Source: Escherichia phage LF82-4. From it: a stretch of DNA of 64,000 bases. The notes below the pieces were generated by a model. The model was given only the letters and a program-made list of their open reading frames with translations. It was not told where the DNA came from and searched no databases. The translations under genes were made by a program, and so were the position numbers. This document shows, piece after piece, positions 335 through 38,645 of the stretch (positions are counted from its first letter, which is position 1; every line of letters starts with the position of its first letter). Location of the stretch: the sequence record PV660448. One strand, written 5' to 3'.

Positions 335-1021
335 TTAGAAGTCGTGAGTAGAATCGGCTTCCATTGCAATAACATAACTTACTTGAGAGCTTTCAAACTT
401 GGCTGCAACTTTATCACCAGCTCCCCACAACATTACTTTATAGTTACCTGGCTGGATTTTCATATTAGCCATATTGATTACGAAGTTAAAGTTGTTAGAA
501 CCATCATAATCGGTAAGAGTCAAAGAATACTTAGGACGAGTTAGACCAGAATCTTCAACTTTATTATAGCCATTGATAACAATTTTACCATCTTTATTTG
601 TAATAGCAATTGTATCAATCTGAAGACCACGTGAAACTCGAAGCAATTGTTGAAGGTCTTCAGCTTTAATTTCAGTAATCACAGAAGCCACTGGGAATTG
701 AATTGGCTTATTAGGAAAAACAATGGTGCTCTTGTCGGCAGCAGGCCAATAAACTGTGGAACGTGTGTCCGCAATTTTAATATTGCCATCAGTGTGCATT
801 GAAATTTCAGCATCGTCAGACACTAGACTCAAAATGCTTAAGAAGCTATTCAAATCATAAAGTGCTACGTCAAAATCAATTTCATCAGAGATATTTGCTT
901 CCGCATAAGTGGTGCCATTAACTGCACGAGTCATAATAAATTTACCTTGACTCAGCAGAATGCCGGAGTTAATAGAGGCAAAGTTTTTCAGAATAGCGAT
1001 AGTATCTTTAGACAGTTTCAT
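335..1021 (-). CDS. 45: sliding clamp gp45
   Basis: ORF track 335..1036; start moved to ATG 1021 (MKLSKDT...) preceded by AAGGAAA RBS; sequence and C-terminus ...EADSTHDF match T4 gp45 from memory, 228 aa. Confidence 0.9.
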   Translation of the reverse strand: MKLSKDTIAILKNFASINSGILLSQGKFIMTRAVNGTTYAEANISDEIDFDVALYDLNSFLSILSLVSDDAEISMHTDGNIKIADTRSTVYWPAADKSTIVFPNKPIQFPVASVITEIKAEDLQQLLRVSRGLQIDTIAITNKDGKIVINGYNKVEDSGLTRPKYSLTLTDYDGSNNFNFVINMANMKIQPGNYKVMLWGAGDKVAAKFESSQVSYVIAMEADSTHDF

Positions 1022-1063
1022 TTTATTTCCTTTCAAGACAATTCAAAGTTTATAACAAATTTA

Positions 1064-1480
1064 TTATGCAGCAACCATCTGCTTTTTAATAGCTTCAGGC
1101 AGTGATTCAATATATTCTGGAATTTTAGAAGCAACAATTTCGCCAGCTGCAATTAATTGTTCATCGGCATCAACGCAGTAGAAATCTTCCAGGCGCTCAG
1201 AACCATCTTTATCAAGAACGATTTTTCCACCTGCTTCAATAGAATCTTTAAAGTGCTTACGCATCAGATGAATCCACATATCAGATACATCGTTATCAAT
1301 AAAACCATAAATCATAAAACGAGTTTCTTGTGGCAAAGATTGAAGCTTTTTAGCACTTGCGTCATCACAATGCAGGACCCATGCTTTACGAACACGATTA
1401 TGGTTATGCGGGTTAGCGTCAGTACGGATAGAAGTAACTTTCAGATCAGCAGCAGTGAAACCTTTAGCAGTAGTAAACAT
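1064..1480 (-). CDS. rpbA: RNA polymerase binding protein RpbA-like
   Basis: 138 aa ORF at the position between genes 45 and 46 where T4 has rpbA; assignment by synteny and size. Confidence 0.55.
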   Translation of the reverse strand: MFTTAKGFTAADLKVTSIRTDANPHNHNRVRKAWVLHCDDASAKKLQSLPQETRFMIYGFIDNDVSDMWIHLMRKHFKDSIEAGGKIVLDKDGSERLEDFYCVDADEQLIAAGEIVASKIPEYIESLPEAIKKQMVAA

Positions 1481-1492
1481 ATTATTTCTCTC

Positions 1493-1681
1493 TTATTCGT
1501 AGAAGTCAGTAACTGTCCATGCGGAATTGCGATTAGACATTATTTTATTATACTCATCTTTAAAAGCAGATTTGAGCATTTGTTCAGTAACAATATGTTC
1601 TTCACCTGAAAACGTATTGGTCAAAACATATTTTTTAATTTCAGGGACAACAAGAAGATGTTGTCCGGTTGAATACTCCAT
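1493..1681 (-). CDS. hypothetical protein (T4 45.2 position)
   Basis: ORF track 1493..1693; downstream ATG 1681 preferred because GGAG lies 6 nt upstream. Confidence 0.45.
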   Translation of the reverse strand: MEYSTGQHLLVVPEIKKYVLTNTFSGEEHIVTEQMLKSAFKDEYNKIMSNRNSAWTVTDFYE

Positions 1682-1735
1682 GTTGTTCTCCATTTAATTT
1701 GATGTGGTCATTATAACCACATCGTGTTAAAGCGT

Positions 1736-3424
1736 TTATGAAACAGTCATTACAGTAAATCGTCCAACTTTACTCATCTGAAGATGTTGTCCATAACGTT
1801 GAGGGTCATGGTCTCGATGAGAGATAATGAACACGTTAGTATTTTGTAAACTTCCAAGAATGGTATCTATAGCCTTAACAGCTTCAGAATCTACAGCGCC
1901 GTCAAAAACCTCATCAAGAATCAACGTGTTGATTTTAACACCAGAAACTTTTTCAGCAATATCTCGCCATGTAAACAACAATGCGATATCGATACGTGCC
2001 TTTTCACCTTGACTAAATGAAGCATAACTAAAATCTTCACGACCACGTGATTTTATAGATTCATTGAATTCTTCGTCAATAGAAAACACATAATCAGCTT
2101 CCATGATTTTAAGGTAATGGTTAATCTGCTTGTTGAACAGAGGCACATATTTTTTAATGATAGCACCTTTAATACCAGAATCTTTTAACATATCTGTTAT
2201 AATACCACGATGGTATTTTTCAAGAACGTTATCCGATTTTGTTTTAATGATTTTATCAAGTTCTTTTTGAAGCAAAGCTATCTCATCGGCATGGTCGATA
2301 AATTCCGCCGAGGCTTGTTCTATTGCAGCTTTAACTTTCTTAGCTTTATCAATAGTGGCAATCATTGCTTGTTTCTTGGTACGAATATCAGATGCAAGGT
2401 CCTGTTTAGTCTTAACATTAGCTCTATATTCGTCCACTAGGACACTCAGATTATCTCTGTGACAGGTAAGTTGCTCGAATGAGTGATTACATTCATGAAG
2501 CTTATCGGTAATCTTAGAGACAATAGGATCACCCTGGTGCAACTGTGATGCACAAGTAGGACATGTGCCACCGTCATGATACATCTTAATAACTTTGTTG
2601 TATGAGTCGATTTTAGATTTAATCAAGAATGCTTCTTGTCCTATCTTGTTGAATGCCTCAGTAGGGTCTTCATCAAGAACGATATTAAGTAGTCGCTCAT
2701 TAGCTTCTTCGATTTCCGCTTTTAATGAACGAGCTTCTTTGGCTAGGTCGTCATACATATTCTGTAGACGCGCTACATTATCACCAGATAATTTCTTTTG
2801 ACGTTCGATATTCTCGTTATAAATCTTAATTTGTTGGATAACACCATCTTTCTTAGCATCGAGAACTTGTCCCTGGGAATTAAGTTCTCGAACTTGAGAC
2901 TTATTGATTTTATCCATTTCAGCGAGTGTGCCGACTTCTAAAAGGTCTTCGACAAGTTTTCTACGAGCAGGGGTGCTAAGAGCCATGAAAGGGGTATACC
3001 CTGCCGTCCCAAGCACAACGATCTGTTTAAAAGACGCGTATGACATTCCGATGCTACGTTCAAATTCTTCTTGGAAGTCACGACTGCTGGCAGATTCATC
3101 GAGACGAACACCGTCAACGGAGATTTCGAAAATATTGGGCTTTTGGCCTCGTTTAATGAAGTATTTTTTATCATCGAATTCCATCCAAAGCTCAACTAAG
3201 AGCTCTTTCTTGTTCGTGCTATTAATGATTTGTCCTTTCTTAACATCACGAAATGGTTTACCGAAAAGTCCGAAAGTAATGGCTTCTAACATCGTAGATT
3301 TACCACCGCCATTTTTACCAGTGATTAATGTCTTTTGGACTTTATCTAATTGGATATCAATAGGATTCCCACCTACCGACATGATGTTTTGATAACGAAC
3401 ACGATTTAATTTAAATGATTTCAT
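1736..3424 (-). CDS. 46: recombination endonuclease subunit gp46 (Rad50/SbcC-like ATPase)
   Basis: 562 aa; N-terminal Walker A GKNGGGKST; long coiled-coil middle; C-terminal LILDEVFDG Walker B; synteny with gene 47. Confidence 0.9.
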   Translation of the reverse strand: MKSFKLNRVRYQNIMSVGGNPIDIQLDKVQKTLITGKNGGGKSTMLEAITFGLFGKPFRDVKKGQIINSTNKKELLVELWMEFDDKKYFIKRGQKPNIFEISVDGVRLDESASSRDFQEEFERSIGMSYASFKQIVVLGTAGYTPFMALSTPARRKLVEDLLEVGTLAEMDKINKSQVRELNSQGQVLDAKKDGVIQQIKIYNENIERQKKLSGDNVARLQNMYDDLAKEARSLKAEIEEANERLLNIVLDEDPTEAFNKIGQEAFLIKSKIDSYNKVIKMYHDGGTCPTCASQLHQGDPIVSKITDKLHECNHSFEQLTCHRDNLSVLVDEYRANVKTKQDLASDIRTKKQAMIATIDKAKKVKAAIEQASAEFIDHADEIALLQKELDKIIKTKSDNVLEKYHRGIITDMLKDSGIKGAIIKKYVPLFNKQINHYLKIMEADYVFSIDEEFNESIKSRGREDFSYASFSQGEKARIDIALLFTWRDIAEKVSGVKINTLILDEVFDGAVDSEAVKAIDTILGSLQNTNVFIISHRDHDPQRYGQHLQMSKVGRFTVMTVS

Positions 3425-34292: not shown

Positions 34293-34322
34293 ACTATAAC
34301 ATAGTCCTATAATTGTGTAAAC
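34293..34322 (-). promoter_or_regulatory. early sigma70-type promoter with flanking inverted repeat
   Basis: Minus strand GTTTAC -18- TATAGT; arms ATAGGACT/AGTCCTAT around the -10. Confidence 0.5.
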
Positions 34323-34334
34323 AGTTTTGTGAAG

Positions 34335-35291
34335 TTATTTGAAAGGTTTTACCATATGGAAATTTTGTTTGAAACGTTTGACGTAATCATTTTTGCCGAG
34401 CTTATGATACATAGCCACTACTTCATAATAGTTCTCGTATGCGTACTCACGGAACCATCCGGAGGTGATGCTTGTACAGACTTTTTCCAATGCCATCATA
34501 AAACTGGCTTCAGGGTTAATTTTAAAGTTATTAGGAATCTGAGAACGTTCTAATGCTAATACACATGATTCTTCGTATACACCGGCCAATTTGACCATTT
34601 CTGGTAATGATTCGAACTTCTCGCGTGAGGTCATGACTTCAGAACCATCTTTCATATAAAATGTATACGCTGGACGGTCTGTTAGTGCAATGGCTTCATG
34701 AATAGTATCATGGTCATATGTATAGATGTCATCTTTAAAGAACGCACTTTTAGAAGTGTCAAGAACCGGGTGAGCATAGTTCAAAGTTTCTTTCTGGCGT
34801 TTCAACATAATTTCAGTAAGTTCATCGTTCAGTGTAACACCTTTACCACGAAGATACTGAATATGGTTCATAGTCTTTAAAAAGAATGGATTATTTTTCT
34901 TGAAACGATGAGACATCTTAATTGCAAGACATATCTCAGGAGTTGCCCAGTAAAACCCAGTCAAACGGTCTTTAGTCAAATTTTTCTTGGCGTATTTTAA
35001 AAGGTCATAAGAAGATGTGAAATCTTCAGGAGTGAGTTCACCGACTAATTCACGGACATTAGTGATTGCCGGAACAATATATGCTTCAAAATGAGTTTCA
35101 CGTCCATTATGGAAGCATTTGAAAACTTGGACATCAGGGTTATCTTGGTGAACATATACACCCATCATTTGATTTTTGAATACATTCCAAGAACCTTGGT
35201 CCGCAATAAAGTCCCAATCACTATTTTTGATAGCGCTAGAATCAATAAGGCCATGGTAGTGAAGTGCACGAGAACCAATAACTAACATCAT
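34335..35291 (-). CDS. hypothetical protein
   Basis: 318 aa; N-terminal IGSRALHYHG...SDWDFIAD weakly resembles a nucleotidyltransferase GS...DxD motif. Confidence 0.5.
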   Translation of the reverse strand: MMLVIGSRALHYHGLIDSSAIKNSDWDFIADQGSWNVFKNQMMGVYVHQDNPDVQVFKCFHNGRETHFEAYIVPAITNVRELVGELTPEDFTSSYDLLKYAKKNLTKDRLTGFYWATPEICLAIKMSHRFKKNNPFFLKTMNHIQYLRGKGVTLNDELTEIMLKRQKETLNYAHPVLDTSKSAFFKDDIYTYDHDTIHEAIALTDRPAYTFYMKDGSEVMTSREKFESLPEMVKLAGVYEESCVLALERSQIPNNFKINPEASFMMALEKVCTSITSGWFREYAYENYYEVVAMYHKLGKNDYVKRFKQNFHMVKPFK

Positions 35292-35316: not shown

Positions 35317-35556
35317 TTAAATTTCGCGACATGCGATATTATATTCATCCCAGAGGTCGTCATGTGAAGCCTCTACCAATGGAACGATTGTACCATTTAT
35401 ATCTTCATTATAAGGGCAAATTGTACAGTGCGCATCTTCGAATCGGATGCCTTTGTGTTCAGATTTTTTATAACGCATATCGAATATCTTTGCAAACTTT
35501 TCACGAGTAATAGTTTTAGCAACTACTTCGGTTCCTATACTTTCGTAATAAACCAT
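35317..35556 (-). CDS. hypothetical cysteine-containing protein
   Basis: ORF track 35317..35568; ATG 35556 with GGAG RBS. Confidence 0.4.
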   Translation of the reverse strand: MVYYESIGTEVVAKTITREKFAKIFDMRYKKSEHKGIRFEDAHCTICPYNEDINGTIVPLVEASHDDLWDEYNIACREI

Positions 35557-35618
35557 TGTTGTCTCCATTTAATTTGATAGGACTACTATAACATAGCCCT
35601 ATCTTGTTGTAAACTGTT

Positions 35619-35816
35619 TTAGCAAGAATAACTAGATGATACCCAGCCTTGAACAGTGATACTATTGTGGGATAATGAGATCGCGTCCTGGAGATTCAGA
35701 CCTGCATTATCTTCAATCCACAATGTAACTTCTTCACGCTCTTCGGTTGCAATCTGGAACAGGTTTTCTAGAGCAGCTACGGCCGTACGTACAGCACAAT
35801 CTAATTCACGAGACAT
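35619..35816 (-). CDS. small protein, paralog family member 3 (C-terminal WVSSSYSC)
   Basis: 65 aa; shares C-terminal motif with two upstream ORFs. Confidence 0.45.
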   Translation of the reverse strand: MSRELDCAVRTAVAALENLFQIATEEREEVTLWIEDNAGLNLQDAISLSHNSITVQGWVSSSYSC

Positions 35817-35825
35817 ATGATTTCC

Positions 35826-36098
35826 TTAACAAGTGTGAGAAGATGCAACCCAACCACCAGTTTCGAGGCTCAGGTTGTAGTCGTATTGGTAAACGTCAGC
35901 CCATTCGGCATAACCGTTTTTTGTACAACGTTCAAGATCGGCTTTAAGATGTCCGGGTGAATGATAGGTTCCACCCATACCATAAGCTGGGTACAAGTTG
36001 AATGTTGTGTTTTGTTTATCAGCAATTTCTTTGGCAGCCTCAATAGCTGCATAGATTTTTGCTACAGCTTCAGCCAGTTCGGTTTGTTCTTTAGACAT
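35826..36098 (-). CDS. small protein, paralog family member 2 (C-terminal GGWVASSHTC)
   Basis: 90 aa; starts MSKEQ; shares architecture with 36108..36413. Confidence 0.5.
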   Translation of the reverse strand: MSKEQTELAEAVAKIYAAIEAAKEIADKQNTTFNLYPAYGMGGTYHSPGHLKADLERCTKNGYAEWADVYQYDYNLSLETGGWVASSHTC

Positions 36099-36107
36099 AA
36101 TGATTCC

Positions 36108-36413
36108 TTAGCACAACGCAGAAGATGAAACCCAAGCACCTTCAGTAATAACGTATCCATTACCTTCACGCTTAACATCGCCGCCATTATTTTCAATTTC
36201 ATCTTTCATCCACTGGGATACGATTTCACCCTTAGGATAATAAGTACGACCGCTACCATAATCACCTACAGAAAATGATACGGCATATTGGTCTGCGATC
36301 TTTGTTGCTTCTTCTTCGATACGTTCAGCTTGATTCAGAAGTTTATAAATTGCATCTGAAGCGGATTTGGCATCATTAAACTCTGGTACTTTAATTTCAA
36401 TAATCTTACTCAT
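36108..36413 (-). CDS. small protein, paralog family member 1 (C-terminal GAWVSSSALC)
   Basis: 101 aa; starts MSKII; early-type promoter just upstream. Confidence 0.5.
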   Translation of the reverse strand: MSKIIEIKVPEFNDAKSASDAIYKLLNQAERIEEEATKIADQYAVSFSVGDYGSGRTYYPKGEIVSQWMKDEIENNGGDVKREGNGYVITEGAWVSSSALC

Positions 36414-36511
36414 TTTCTACATTCCTTAATAAAGTTTTCGATTGTTTCATTTTCACGTTTAGCTAGGAGTTCATTATAACTAATCATTTGAGAAGCGTAA
36501 ACAGCATAAAT

Positions 36512-36934
36512 TCAGTTAAGGCTTTTGCATCTTATTTCCTTAACGAATTCCATAGCTTCTTCATATTCATACTTTTTAACAGCTTCATCATACTGAGCTT
36601 GGGCTTTTGCGCACTGAACTTTCCATTCTCTTAATCGGGCTCTGTGATGACGGCCTTGGTACCAATATCCCATCCAGTTAATAGGCATTAATAAAAATGG
36701 TACAATAAGTGGTGCGACGAACATTAATGAAAATGCTGCATCAGACGATATAACTTCACTAGAATCTAAAACGGCTCCTATAATCATAAAGATTAAAAAT
36801 GCTAAAGCTAAAATAGGGCCAAATAGTACTTCATTTGGGATTAATTTACGCTTGTATTCATACGCCCAGGGCTTACTTGGCATGTACAGGGTTGGCTTTG
36901 ACATATTCTCTACATTCCATAATAAATTGCTCAA
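36512..36934 (-). CDS. hypothetical membrane protein
   Basis: 140 aa, two or three transmembrane helices followed by charged tail. Confidence 0.45.
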   Translation of the reverse strand: MSNLLWNVENMSKPTLYMPSKPWAYEYKRKLIPNEVLFGPILALAFLIFMIIGAVLDSSEVISSDAAFSLMFVAPLIVPFLLMPINWMGYWYQGRHHRARLREWKVQCAKAQAQYDEAVKKYEYEEAMEFVKEIRCKSLN

Positions 36935-38142: not shown

Positions 38143-38187
38143 TATTATCCAACGAGAGCATTATACTCTGCTCTCAAGAGTTTGTAA
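38143..38187. repeat. 45-nt exact repeat, copy 2 (promoter cassette)
   Basis: Identical to 8200..8244. Confidence 0.9.
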
Positions 38188-38191
38188 ATTA
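38162..38191 (-). promoter_or_regulatory. early-type promoter inside duplicated 45-nt cassette (copy 2)
   Basis: Minus strand ATTTACA -17- TATAAT; identical core to copy at 8200..8244. Confidence 0.5.
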
Positions 38192-38416: not shown

Positions 38417-38645
38417 TTTGTTTTCCTCTTGATTTGATGTGATTACTATAACATAAACTTACTTAGATGTAAACTATTTCAACATCACCTTTAGCTGCTT
38501 TATAACCTTCGGCCCAAGATACAACAGAGTTTTTATCTGAGGATTCAAATTCAGGCATTGGACTTTCACCAATATTCACACAGTATGTTTCTTCATTTTC
38601 ATCGAACCAAATAATTAAAGTAGTCATTTTGTTTACTCCACTGTA

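Follow-up and report, generated by a model that had tools for sequence, protein, structure and literature searches.

Why should three adjacent small genes of a T4-type coliphage end in almost the same ten residues, and what might such an ending do? The question is raised by a stretch of 64,000 nucleotides (nt) of Escherichia phage LF82-4 (PV660448; here called the window), whose source is a Mosigvirus, an RB69-like T4-type coliphage. Three consecutive open reading frames (ORFs) on the minus strand are concerned: ORF1 (36108..36413; 101 amino acids, aa), ORF2 (35826..36098; 90 aa) and ORF3 (35619..35816; 65 aa). They terminate in GAWVSSSALC (36111..36140), GGWVASSHTC (35829..35858) and QGWVSSSYSC (35622..35651), respectively. 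An initial annotation, made from the letters of the window without database searches, described the ORFs and their tails exactly as the ORF list and the sequence have them, and took the conserved C-terminus, including its cysteine, for a functional module that might serve targeting, modification or binding. The core of that proposal holds, but the decisive context, a near-obligate linkage to a downstream nucleotidyltransferase gene, was missed. Judged from sequence comparison, ORF1–3 diverged from one another long ago and belong to a previously undescribed family of small acidic proteins that is widespread among phages and specific to them, and together with the nucleotidyltransferase these proteins look like a conserved two-part system. 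No mention of the RB69 ORF names, of such a motif, or of DUF7275 and DUF7277, the two Pfam families matched by the enzyme, was found in the literature searched. Two sets of orphan genes thereby become one testable hypothesis, tied together by a shared tail, a MenT/AbiEii-like fold and a putative early module.

A family of small proteins with a common C-terminus

A motif search beyond the window, which the initial annotation had suggested, was made with a seven-sequence profile run exhaustively against 1.84 billion representatives (E <= 1e-3). The profile matches 173 clusters at 50% identity, and a word-indexed profile search matches 676 clusters at 90% identity. Of the 153 profile matches inspected, 134 have W-x-[SAP]-S-S-x-x-C as their exact end, and in seven more one residue is added. 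The family consensus runs from an amphipathic helix through ...EAExIADE.., FxF, YGMGGTYYPxG and a variable acidic linker, which sometimes carries extra W-x-S-S repeats, to the terminal (E)GGW[VILM]SSSxxC. The median isoelectric point (pI) is 4.5; ORF1, ORF2 and ORF3 have values of 4.6, 5.0 and 4.2. The tail is also found on sequence-distinct bodies, namely ORF3-type proteins, 74–76-aa ‘double-motif’ proteins (...DWLNSSCYGE...IWYPSSC), minimal forms of 45–52 aa and proteins of 139–173 aa. The core common to all these groups is W-x-x-S-S, followed by the C-terminal Cys either at once or two residues later. Because the tail is kept over 173 clusters from very different phages and on bodies distinct in sequence, the extreme C-terminus, terminal Cys included, is to all appearances a functional element under protein-level constraint.

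Within the window, a six-frame scan for W-[VIL]-[SA]-S-S found nothing beyond the three ORF ends. Sequence searches of Pfam, NCBIfam, PADLOC and PDB with the small proteins gave no significant match. Weak matches to XkdF, E217_Gp32 and designed helical bundles were set aside as noise, and P0068, a 953-aa protein with five weak matches, was treated as a false positive; its N-terminal region resembles a helicase, and tandem repeats come after it. ORF1 and ORF2 match phrog_899 (E 1e-22 and 5e-19, respectively; ORF1 also matches the family hidden Markov model with E 6e-24) and ORF3 falls in phrog_4882. The PHROGs listing gives both of these groups, and phrog_2141 to which the enzyme belongs, as ‘unknown function’ and leaves all three unconnected.

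Could the likeness of the tails be no more than a trace left where 3′ gene ends were recently duplicated as DNA, or could the ORFs not be real genes at all? A 48-nt repeat with 73% identity spans the two gene junctions of the array, TAAGGAATCATTATG and TAAGGAAATCATATG, and would fit such an origin. However, DNA repeats among ORF1–3 are limited to this one, which covers junction and tail, and a second of 25 nt (76% identity) at the YGxGxTY motif, while conserved tail residues are encoded differently from copy to copy (Val GTT/GTT/GTA, Ser TCT/TCT/AGT and Cys TGC/TGT/TGC in ORF1, ORF2 and ORF3). As the codons differ and the repeats are short, the likeness lies at the protein level and not at the DNA level. 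By their substitution pattern ORF1–3 are real genes under purifying selection: the ratio of non-synonymous to synonymous substitution rates (dN/dS) against the orthologues in four other Mosigviruses is 0–0.22, and for ORF3 it is 0–0.02, with 14 synonymous changes and one non-synonymous change relative to RB69. The motif is moreover retained in hundreds of clusters at 25–40% overall identity, and every paralogue has its own orthologues in other genera, ORF1-type proteins occurring in Aeromonas phage CC2 (45% identity), ORF2-type proteins in JS98, VR7 and Klebsiella and Citrobacter phages (55–62% identity) and ORF3-type proteins in Dhakavirus-like and Klebsiella-phage-like loci. Duplication of DNA without constraint on the protein, which the initial annotation had itself named as the way in which it might be wrong, is refuted on these grounds. 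For the last of these reasons the genes are not recent tandem duplicates either, and in that sense the earlier description of them has to be given up.

The N-terminal halves of the three proteins had been called divergent. This is so for ORF3, with which hhalign aligns only the 11-residue tail of the ORF1/ORF2-type family (11 columns, 77.5% probability), but ORF1 and ORF2 are full-length homologues of the same phrog and have in common the IAD helix and the YGxGxTY loop. The family core, in which an amphipathic helix that closes with IAD(E) is joined by an FxF strand and a YGMGGTYYPxG loop, is present in ORF1, of the YGSGRTYYP subtype (YGSGRTYYPKG), and in ORF2, a canonical member with an AYGMGGTY loop (YGMGGTYHSPG), and is absent from ORF3.

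An AlphaFold2 model of ORF2, made with an 82-sequence alignment, shows a compact fold with a predicted local distance difference test score (pLDDT) of 88.7 and a predicted template modelling score (pTM) of 0.76. A helix occupies residues 3–29, strands 32–35 and 43–46 flank a Gly-rich loop, and two short helices complete the body. The residues GGWVA of the C-terminal signature make a third beta strand (81–85), which is followed by a terminal turn. The G-G-W-V-A stretch is therefore predicted to sit within the compact fold, and the picture of a free C-terminal tail does not survive in the model.

Two loci show how far the ending can vary. The largest array seen, at 413–3421 of IMGVR_UViG_3300044693_000036 (loci L014 and L124), has five contiguous tail paralogues and a sixth after the enzyme gene, and its ends are unusually degenerate (...GWEGSAC, ...GWTNSSTYC, ...GWKNSSSYC, ...GGWYSSHC and ...GWQPSAGTC). 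In Acinetobacter phage Berthold, gp070 (1700–1876 of locus L138) ends in ...WHNSNWSNSES without a terminal Cys and is flanked by two intact tail paralogues; from its sequence it looks like a natural tail-loss variant.

The linked nucleotidyltransferase

Collecting loci by the small protein and, reciprocally, by the enzyme leads to the same pair of genes. In 42 viral-contig loci gathered with a 13-sequence sub-alignment of the small protein, all ORFs were clustered all-against-all. A ~300-aa homologue of one 318-aa protein is common to 40 of these loci, the full number of those in which enough DNA follows; three loci that lack it stop soon after the match, and the next-best real gene family is common to only 11. 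The homologue always lies downstream on the same strand, 50–1500 bp past the last small ORF (40/40 loci), and the small ORFs occur in arrays of one to six. In the reciprocal sample of 80 loci picked via the enzyme, about 75 have one to six upstream same-strand tail ORFs, including five-gene arrays in JS98-like phages. Of the 970 upstream same-strand ORFs, 175 have the strict tail; of the 4506 other ORFs 7 do, each of them in turn upstream of an off-centre enzyme gene. The contigs in the sample range from ~40 to 390 kb and the enzymes fall to ~36–40% identity, so the module moves as a unit and is not a matter of simple inherited synteny. We propose, from these gene arrangements, an early-expressed module of one to six small tail proteins followed by one DUF7277-DUF7275 nucleotidyltransferase.

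In the window the enzyme is encoded at 34335..35291 on the minus strand (RB69 ORF134c). Its homologues form >2,100 clusters at 90% identity and occur in 733 of 50,697 deposited phage genomes, among them Mosigvirus, Dhakavirus, T4-like phages of Enterobacter, Acinetobacter and Aeromonas T4-like phages and jumbo phages. In every record inspected they are annotated as hypothetical or as ‘putative nucleotidyltransferase’. The invariant residues G6-S7, D25-x-D27 and E69 constitute the Pol-beta nucleotidyltransferase signature, both motif I (hG[GS]) and motif II ([DE]x[DE]) being present, and the fold is of the Pol-beta type close to the MenT/AbiEii/ANT group. In spacing, the conserved K125, K139 and D193-H194-D195 are roughly comparable to the C-terminal motifs III/IV, which form the catalytic site in MenT/AbiEii. 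The C-terminal domain is very conserved (K125, H128, K139, R165, H174, H194-D195-x-x-H198, E240-E241, E248-R249 and C272-T-S-I-T-S-G-W-F-R-E), and no structural counterpart was identified for the ~170 residues of DUF7275. Besides DUF7277 and DUF7275, no family match recurs in 56 enzyme homologues at E <= 1; the nucleotidyltransferase-type matches among them are single weak ones to DUF6036, Polbeta and Poly_A_pol_cat, and the sequences do not fall within DUF1814/AbiEii. Identity with RlaP, the RNA-ligase-associated nucleotidyltransferase of phages and bacteria, likewise phage-borne and of Pol-beta type, was rejected as RlaP is a different Pfam family (PF10127), to which there was no match; nor do the RlaP descriptions examined include a small Cys-tailed partner.

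Arrays of precursor-like genes beside a single enzyme, and the invariant Cys and His in the C-terminal domain of the partner-associated clade, would suit a maturation like that of ribosomally synthesized and post-translationally modified peptides. The Ser at –4 and the C-terminal Cys would be closed into a ring of thioether or aminovinyl-cysteine (AviCys) type, the nucleotidyltransferase activating the Ser for elimination and then addition of the Cys, and the tandem genes would supply multiple precursors. In epidermin-type lanthipeptides the C-terminal AviCys ring has the same spacing as S-x-x-C-COOH. However, a scan that took in the enzyme and a set of flanking genes revealed no LanB, LanM, LanKC, LanC or LanD-type domain. 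The i/i+3 spacing is missing from the short variant W-x-x-S-S-C, a few members have one residue past the Cys, and the predicted structure is a folded domain rather than a leader and a core peptide. We consider both the ring and this route to it very improbable.

Not all relatives of the enzyme have partners. Gordonia phage Smoothie gp16, KVP40.0037, Streptomyces phage Annadreamy gp196, Vibrio phage K354_0139 and prophiGD54-2 gp84 are distant homologues without upstream tail ORFs. All five keep the catalytic GS, DxD, K125, H128, K139, HDxxH, EE and ER, and all five lack C272, S277, R281, R165 and H174. Since the catalytic set is kept in relatives without partners, the primary substrate is suggested to be something other than the small proteins, which would be an add-on to the enzyme. 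The distribution of residues suggests that the small partners and the CTSITSGWFRE region are a clade-specific addition and the partners not a universal substrate. A pairing of Cys243 with Cys272 as a shared thiol site was considered and abandoned: Berthold has small partners and keeps C272 but has Tyr in place of C243, and only C272, S277 and R281 track the partners, at the level of the clade.

Possible roles of the small proteins

The closest parallel is MenAT1 of Mycobacterium tuberculosis, in which a small gene (MenA1, 68 aa) likewise lies immediately upstream of a nucleotidyltransferase gene (MenT1, DUF1814). MenA1 is a helical protein that blocks the active site of MenT1 with a long helix (PMC10435456), and a long N-terminal helix is also predicted for the phage partner. 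The phage module resembles such a pair in gene order and enzyme fold and differs from it in sequence, in the number of paralogues, in its Cys-terminal signature and in its residence in lytic phages, MenAT1 being found on bacterial chromosomes. There is no sequence relationship on either the enzyme or the small-protein side; the small-protein profile found no PDB chain, and no similarity of sequence or fold to MenA1 was seen. The phage enzyme is ~120 aa longer than MenT1, with a highly conserved extra helical domain (DUF7275). It is accompanied by one to six partner paralogues instead of one, and whereas the C-terminus of MenA1 is dispensable, the phage partners have an invariant W-x-x-S-S-(x-x)-C end. 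Other relatives by fold are less alike in their genetics. The antitoxins of AbiE (AbiEi/AbiEii) and of the type IV/VII systems MenAT3/MenAT4 are large, unrelated COG5340 proteins with winged helix-turn-helix and kinase-like domains, and the aminoglycoside and lincosamide nucleotidyltransferases ANT(2″), LnuA and LinB use small-molecule substrates and have neither partner proteins nor DUF7275.

The reading that we favour, tentatively, sees in the small proteins acidic partners of the enzyme with an accessory or regulatory, antitoxin-like role, the tail serving as a contact element. They would be subunits of the nucleotidyltransferase resembling MenA1. The acidic body and the long N-terminal helix would cover a basic, conserved surface of the enzyme, while the C-terminal element, with its Trp as an anchor, the Ser-Ser hydroxyls and the terminal thiol and carboxylate, might reach the catalytic region or the clade-specific CTSITSGWFRE region and act there as a pseudo-substrate or contact. 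The paralogues could then gate or re-target the enzyme in early infection. The comparisons establish the family and its motif, the purifying selection, the linkage and the fold of the enzyme; that the proteins touch, what the tail does and which way regulation runs we infer. The acidity of the small proteins and the 27-residue N-terminal helix of the ORF2 model fit a partner role. In E. coli three members of the family are also harmless by themselves: in a toxicity screen g126, g127 and g128 from Yersinia phage phiR1-RT gave relative colony-forming units of 0.94, 0.69 and 1.08 (PMC6893735 supplement). These genes were assigned to the family by matching the published primers to the orthologous locus L065, where the products end in ...WASSSSDC, ...WVSSSDMC and ...WESSSC, respectively. 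Numbered a few genes beyond them are those for Gp136 and Gp137, two small phiR1-RT proteins that are toxic and have predicted transmembrane helices (PMC6893735); they may correspond to the e.3/e.4-type membrane proteins beside the module.

Several observations weigh against an accessory or regulatory role. The phiR1-RT toxicity screen did not include the enzyme gene, g125 (PMC6893735 supplement). Between one and six divergent paralogues per enzyme would be unusual for an antitoxin, and an invariant Ser-Ser with a terminal Cys suggests chemistry at the site more than binding. Within 2.5–3 kb upstream, about 5 of the 80 close-clade enzymes lack any tail ORF. The correlation of C272 with the presence of partners is at the level of the clade and therefore not phylogenetically independent, and C243 is replaced in Berthold despite its partners.

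If the ending is indeed a chemical site, the enzyme may covalently modify it, by nucleotidylylation or phosphorylation of Ser-Ser or Cys; the paralogues would be substrates with a shared recognition tag, and the modified proteins would be the effectors. This, the main rival, we hold to be less probable than not by a good measure, although several observations speak for it. The W, the two S and the terminal C are invariant amid variable surroundings, the tail is carried by unrelated bodies that all lie beside the same enzyme, for which one enzyme with many tagged substrates is a natural reading, and W-x-S-S is repeated in acidic linkers and in the ‘double-motif’ proteins. Among the structural neighbours, ANT(2″) and LnuA transfer nucleotides to hydroxyl groups. 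According to two papers (PMC10435456, PMC11375011), MenT3 is phosphorylated on an active-site Ser; the later one (PMC11375011) describes this as an auto-phosphorylation induced by the antitoxin. Against modification of the tail, the catalytic set is whole in the partner-less relatives, so that the ancestral substrate would have been something else, and AlphaFold2 puts the W-V strand within a sheet and not in a free peptide. The stronger form of the idea, that the tail is a portable covalent acceptor tag and that the enzyme nucleotidylylates or phosphorylates, and possibly further processes, the Ser-Ser/Cys end of dedicated small proteins, is unlikely in our estimate.

The small proteins might also act apart from the enzyme, upon a host target or by binding a metal or cofactor via the Cys tail, with a shared pathway but no direct contact between the two. 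They could, for instance, be inhibitors or decoys of host defence or of an RNA-damaging enzyme, within a pathway such as RNA/tRNA repair or counter-defence; we think both this independence and these particular candidates rather doubtful. An acidic character is common to many phage inhibitors, the genes lie in the early accessory-gene region at the place where T4 has e.2, and the small proteins are non-toxic on their own. The neighbourhood of the enzyme is also suggestive. In jumbo-phage loci (L008, L010, L016, L026, L032 and L038; ~360 kb, contigs to ~371 kb) the module is within 7 kb downstream of genes for T4-type RNA ligase 1 (Rnl1) and polynucleotide kinase-phosphatase (Pnkp), as identified with Pfam; at loci L006 and L007 a Pnkp-like gene is 3 kb upstream; and in Streptomyces phage Annadreamy (L137) an RNA ligase gene is 1.2 kb upstream of the partner-less enzyme. 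The presence of RNA-repair genes within 1–7 kb in three lineages, borne out by Pfam, is a hint that the enzyme acts on RNA ends, and adjacency to RNA ligase/Pnkp genes in some lineages is a further likeness to RlaP. However, general linkage to tRNA genes was not found, such a gene being nearby in only 7 of 56 loci. The strict same-strand, immediately upstream position in very distant phages without other synteny is tighter than is usual for genes that merely co-function, and, given enough downstream DNA, the enzyme accompanied the small protein at every locus that the latter had picked out.

Whether the small proteins are partners or substrates, either outcome would be new phage biology. The fold of the enzyme is that of the MenT/AbiEii toxins, which modify tRNA; the hallmark of that family is toxicity for growth by extending tRNA 3′ ends, relieved by the protein encoded upstream. 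If the small proteins gate a MenT-like enzyme, lytic phages would be using a toxin–antitoxin-like pair. If the tail is covalently modified, many hundreds of phage genomes would encode a new protein-tagging or maturation chemistry, of a kind met nowhere in the sources searched. The enzyme family is carried by many T4-like coliphages that serve in therapy (Mosigvirus, Dhakavirus and T4-like phages of Enterobacter).

Genomic setting and local arrangement

In RB69 the module consists of ORF139c/138c, 137c, 136c, 135c and 134c and adjoins e.3–e.6, where T4 has e.2. The orthologue of ORF1 is ORF139c together with ORF138c, that of ORF2 is ORF137c and that of ORF3 is ORF136c. The first of these is split by a frameshift in NC_004928 (2185–2491 of L132) into ORF139c (71 aa) and ORF138c (33 aa), which is either a real pseudogene or a sequencing error. 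Phages TH12, CCU7, Shf125875 and p000v are 97–98% identical to the 1.65-kb region of the window. The initial annotation did not recognize the motif from T4, rightly: neither a small-protein gene nor an enzyme gene is present in the 83% of the T4 genome scanned, which covers all early regions. T4 e.2 was considered as a positional homologue and dismissed, its sequence being unrelated. Tk.1 of T4 (62 aa; tk.1 at ~20347–20535 of L003) shows a weak FxF...YGxxxTYY likeness (E 0.005 in a T4-only ORF set) without a W..SS..C tail; the resemblance could mark a degenerate relative or have arisen by chance. A search of 185,579 bacterial and archaeal species genomes gave only six matches, all on contigs of metagenome-assembled genomes and five of them with tail ORFs. 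A link to the synthesis of arabinosyl-hydroxymethylcytosine in RB69 was discarded, those genes being elsewhere in the genome. In phage JK42 a ‘sulfurtransferase’ label, apparently spurious, is attached to the e.4-like membrane protein next door.

The gap between ORF3 and the enzyme gene holds an ORF of 83 aa (35317..35568, minus strand; phrog_3723; RB69 ORF135c), which contains an HCTICP motif and is without the tail motif. Among the records inspected it was seen only in Mosigvirus, and it is an uncertain member of the module.

Each of ORF1, ORF2 and ORF3 has an AAGGA ribosome-binding site 6–10 nt ahead of its ATG. A promoter-like site of the T4 early type, (G)TTTACG-17 nt-TATAAT with 10/12 consensus matches, lies directly upstream of ORF1 (36473..36501, minus strand). 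A second (35585..35613, minus strand), which reads TTTACA-17 nt-TATAGT and is extended by TG, precedes the 83-aa ORF in the gap after ORF3, and this ORF thus has such a site of its own. Further minus-strand sites of the form (G)TTTAC(A/G)-17 nt-TATA(A/G)T are at 34293–34321, 38160–38188 and 38445–38473, making five in all, evenly spread, each of which precedes a gene or gene group as T4-type early promoters in an accessory-gene region would. The sites are consensus matches only, and their regional count is not above the expectation from shuffled sequence. Between the genes of the array the minus strand has no terminator-like site. An imperfect inverted repeat, TAGGGCTA...TAGTCCTA (35570–35600, minus strand), shares nucleotides with the –10 region of the promoter-like site that follows ORF3 and, by its sequence, could be a hairpin or regulatory element.

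Upstream of ORF1 the Mosigviruses differ among themselves. In most, ORF1 and the e.4 homologue are separated by a gene of ~360 nt whose product is an e.3-like membrane protein of 119 aa (4100–4459 of L001 and 4110–4469 of L002). This gene is absent from TH12, CCU7 and p000v and from the window (36414–36520), in which the early-type promoter-like site takes its place; the e.4 homologue, a membrane protein, follows at 36512–36934 on the minus strand of the window.

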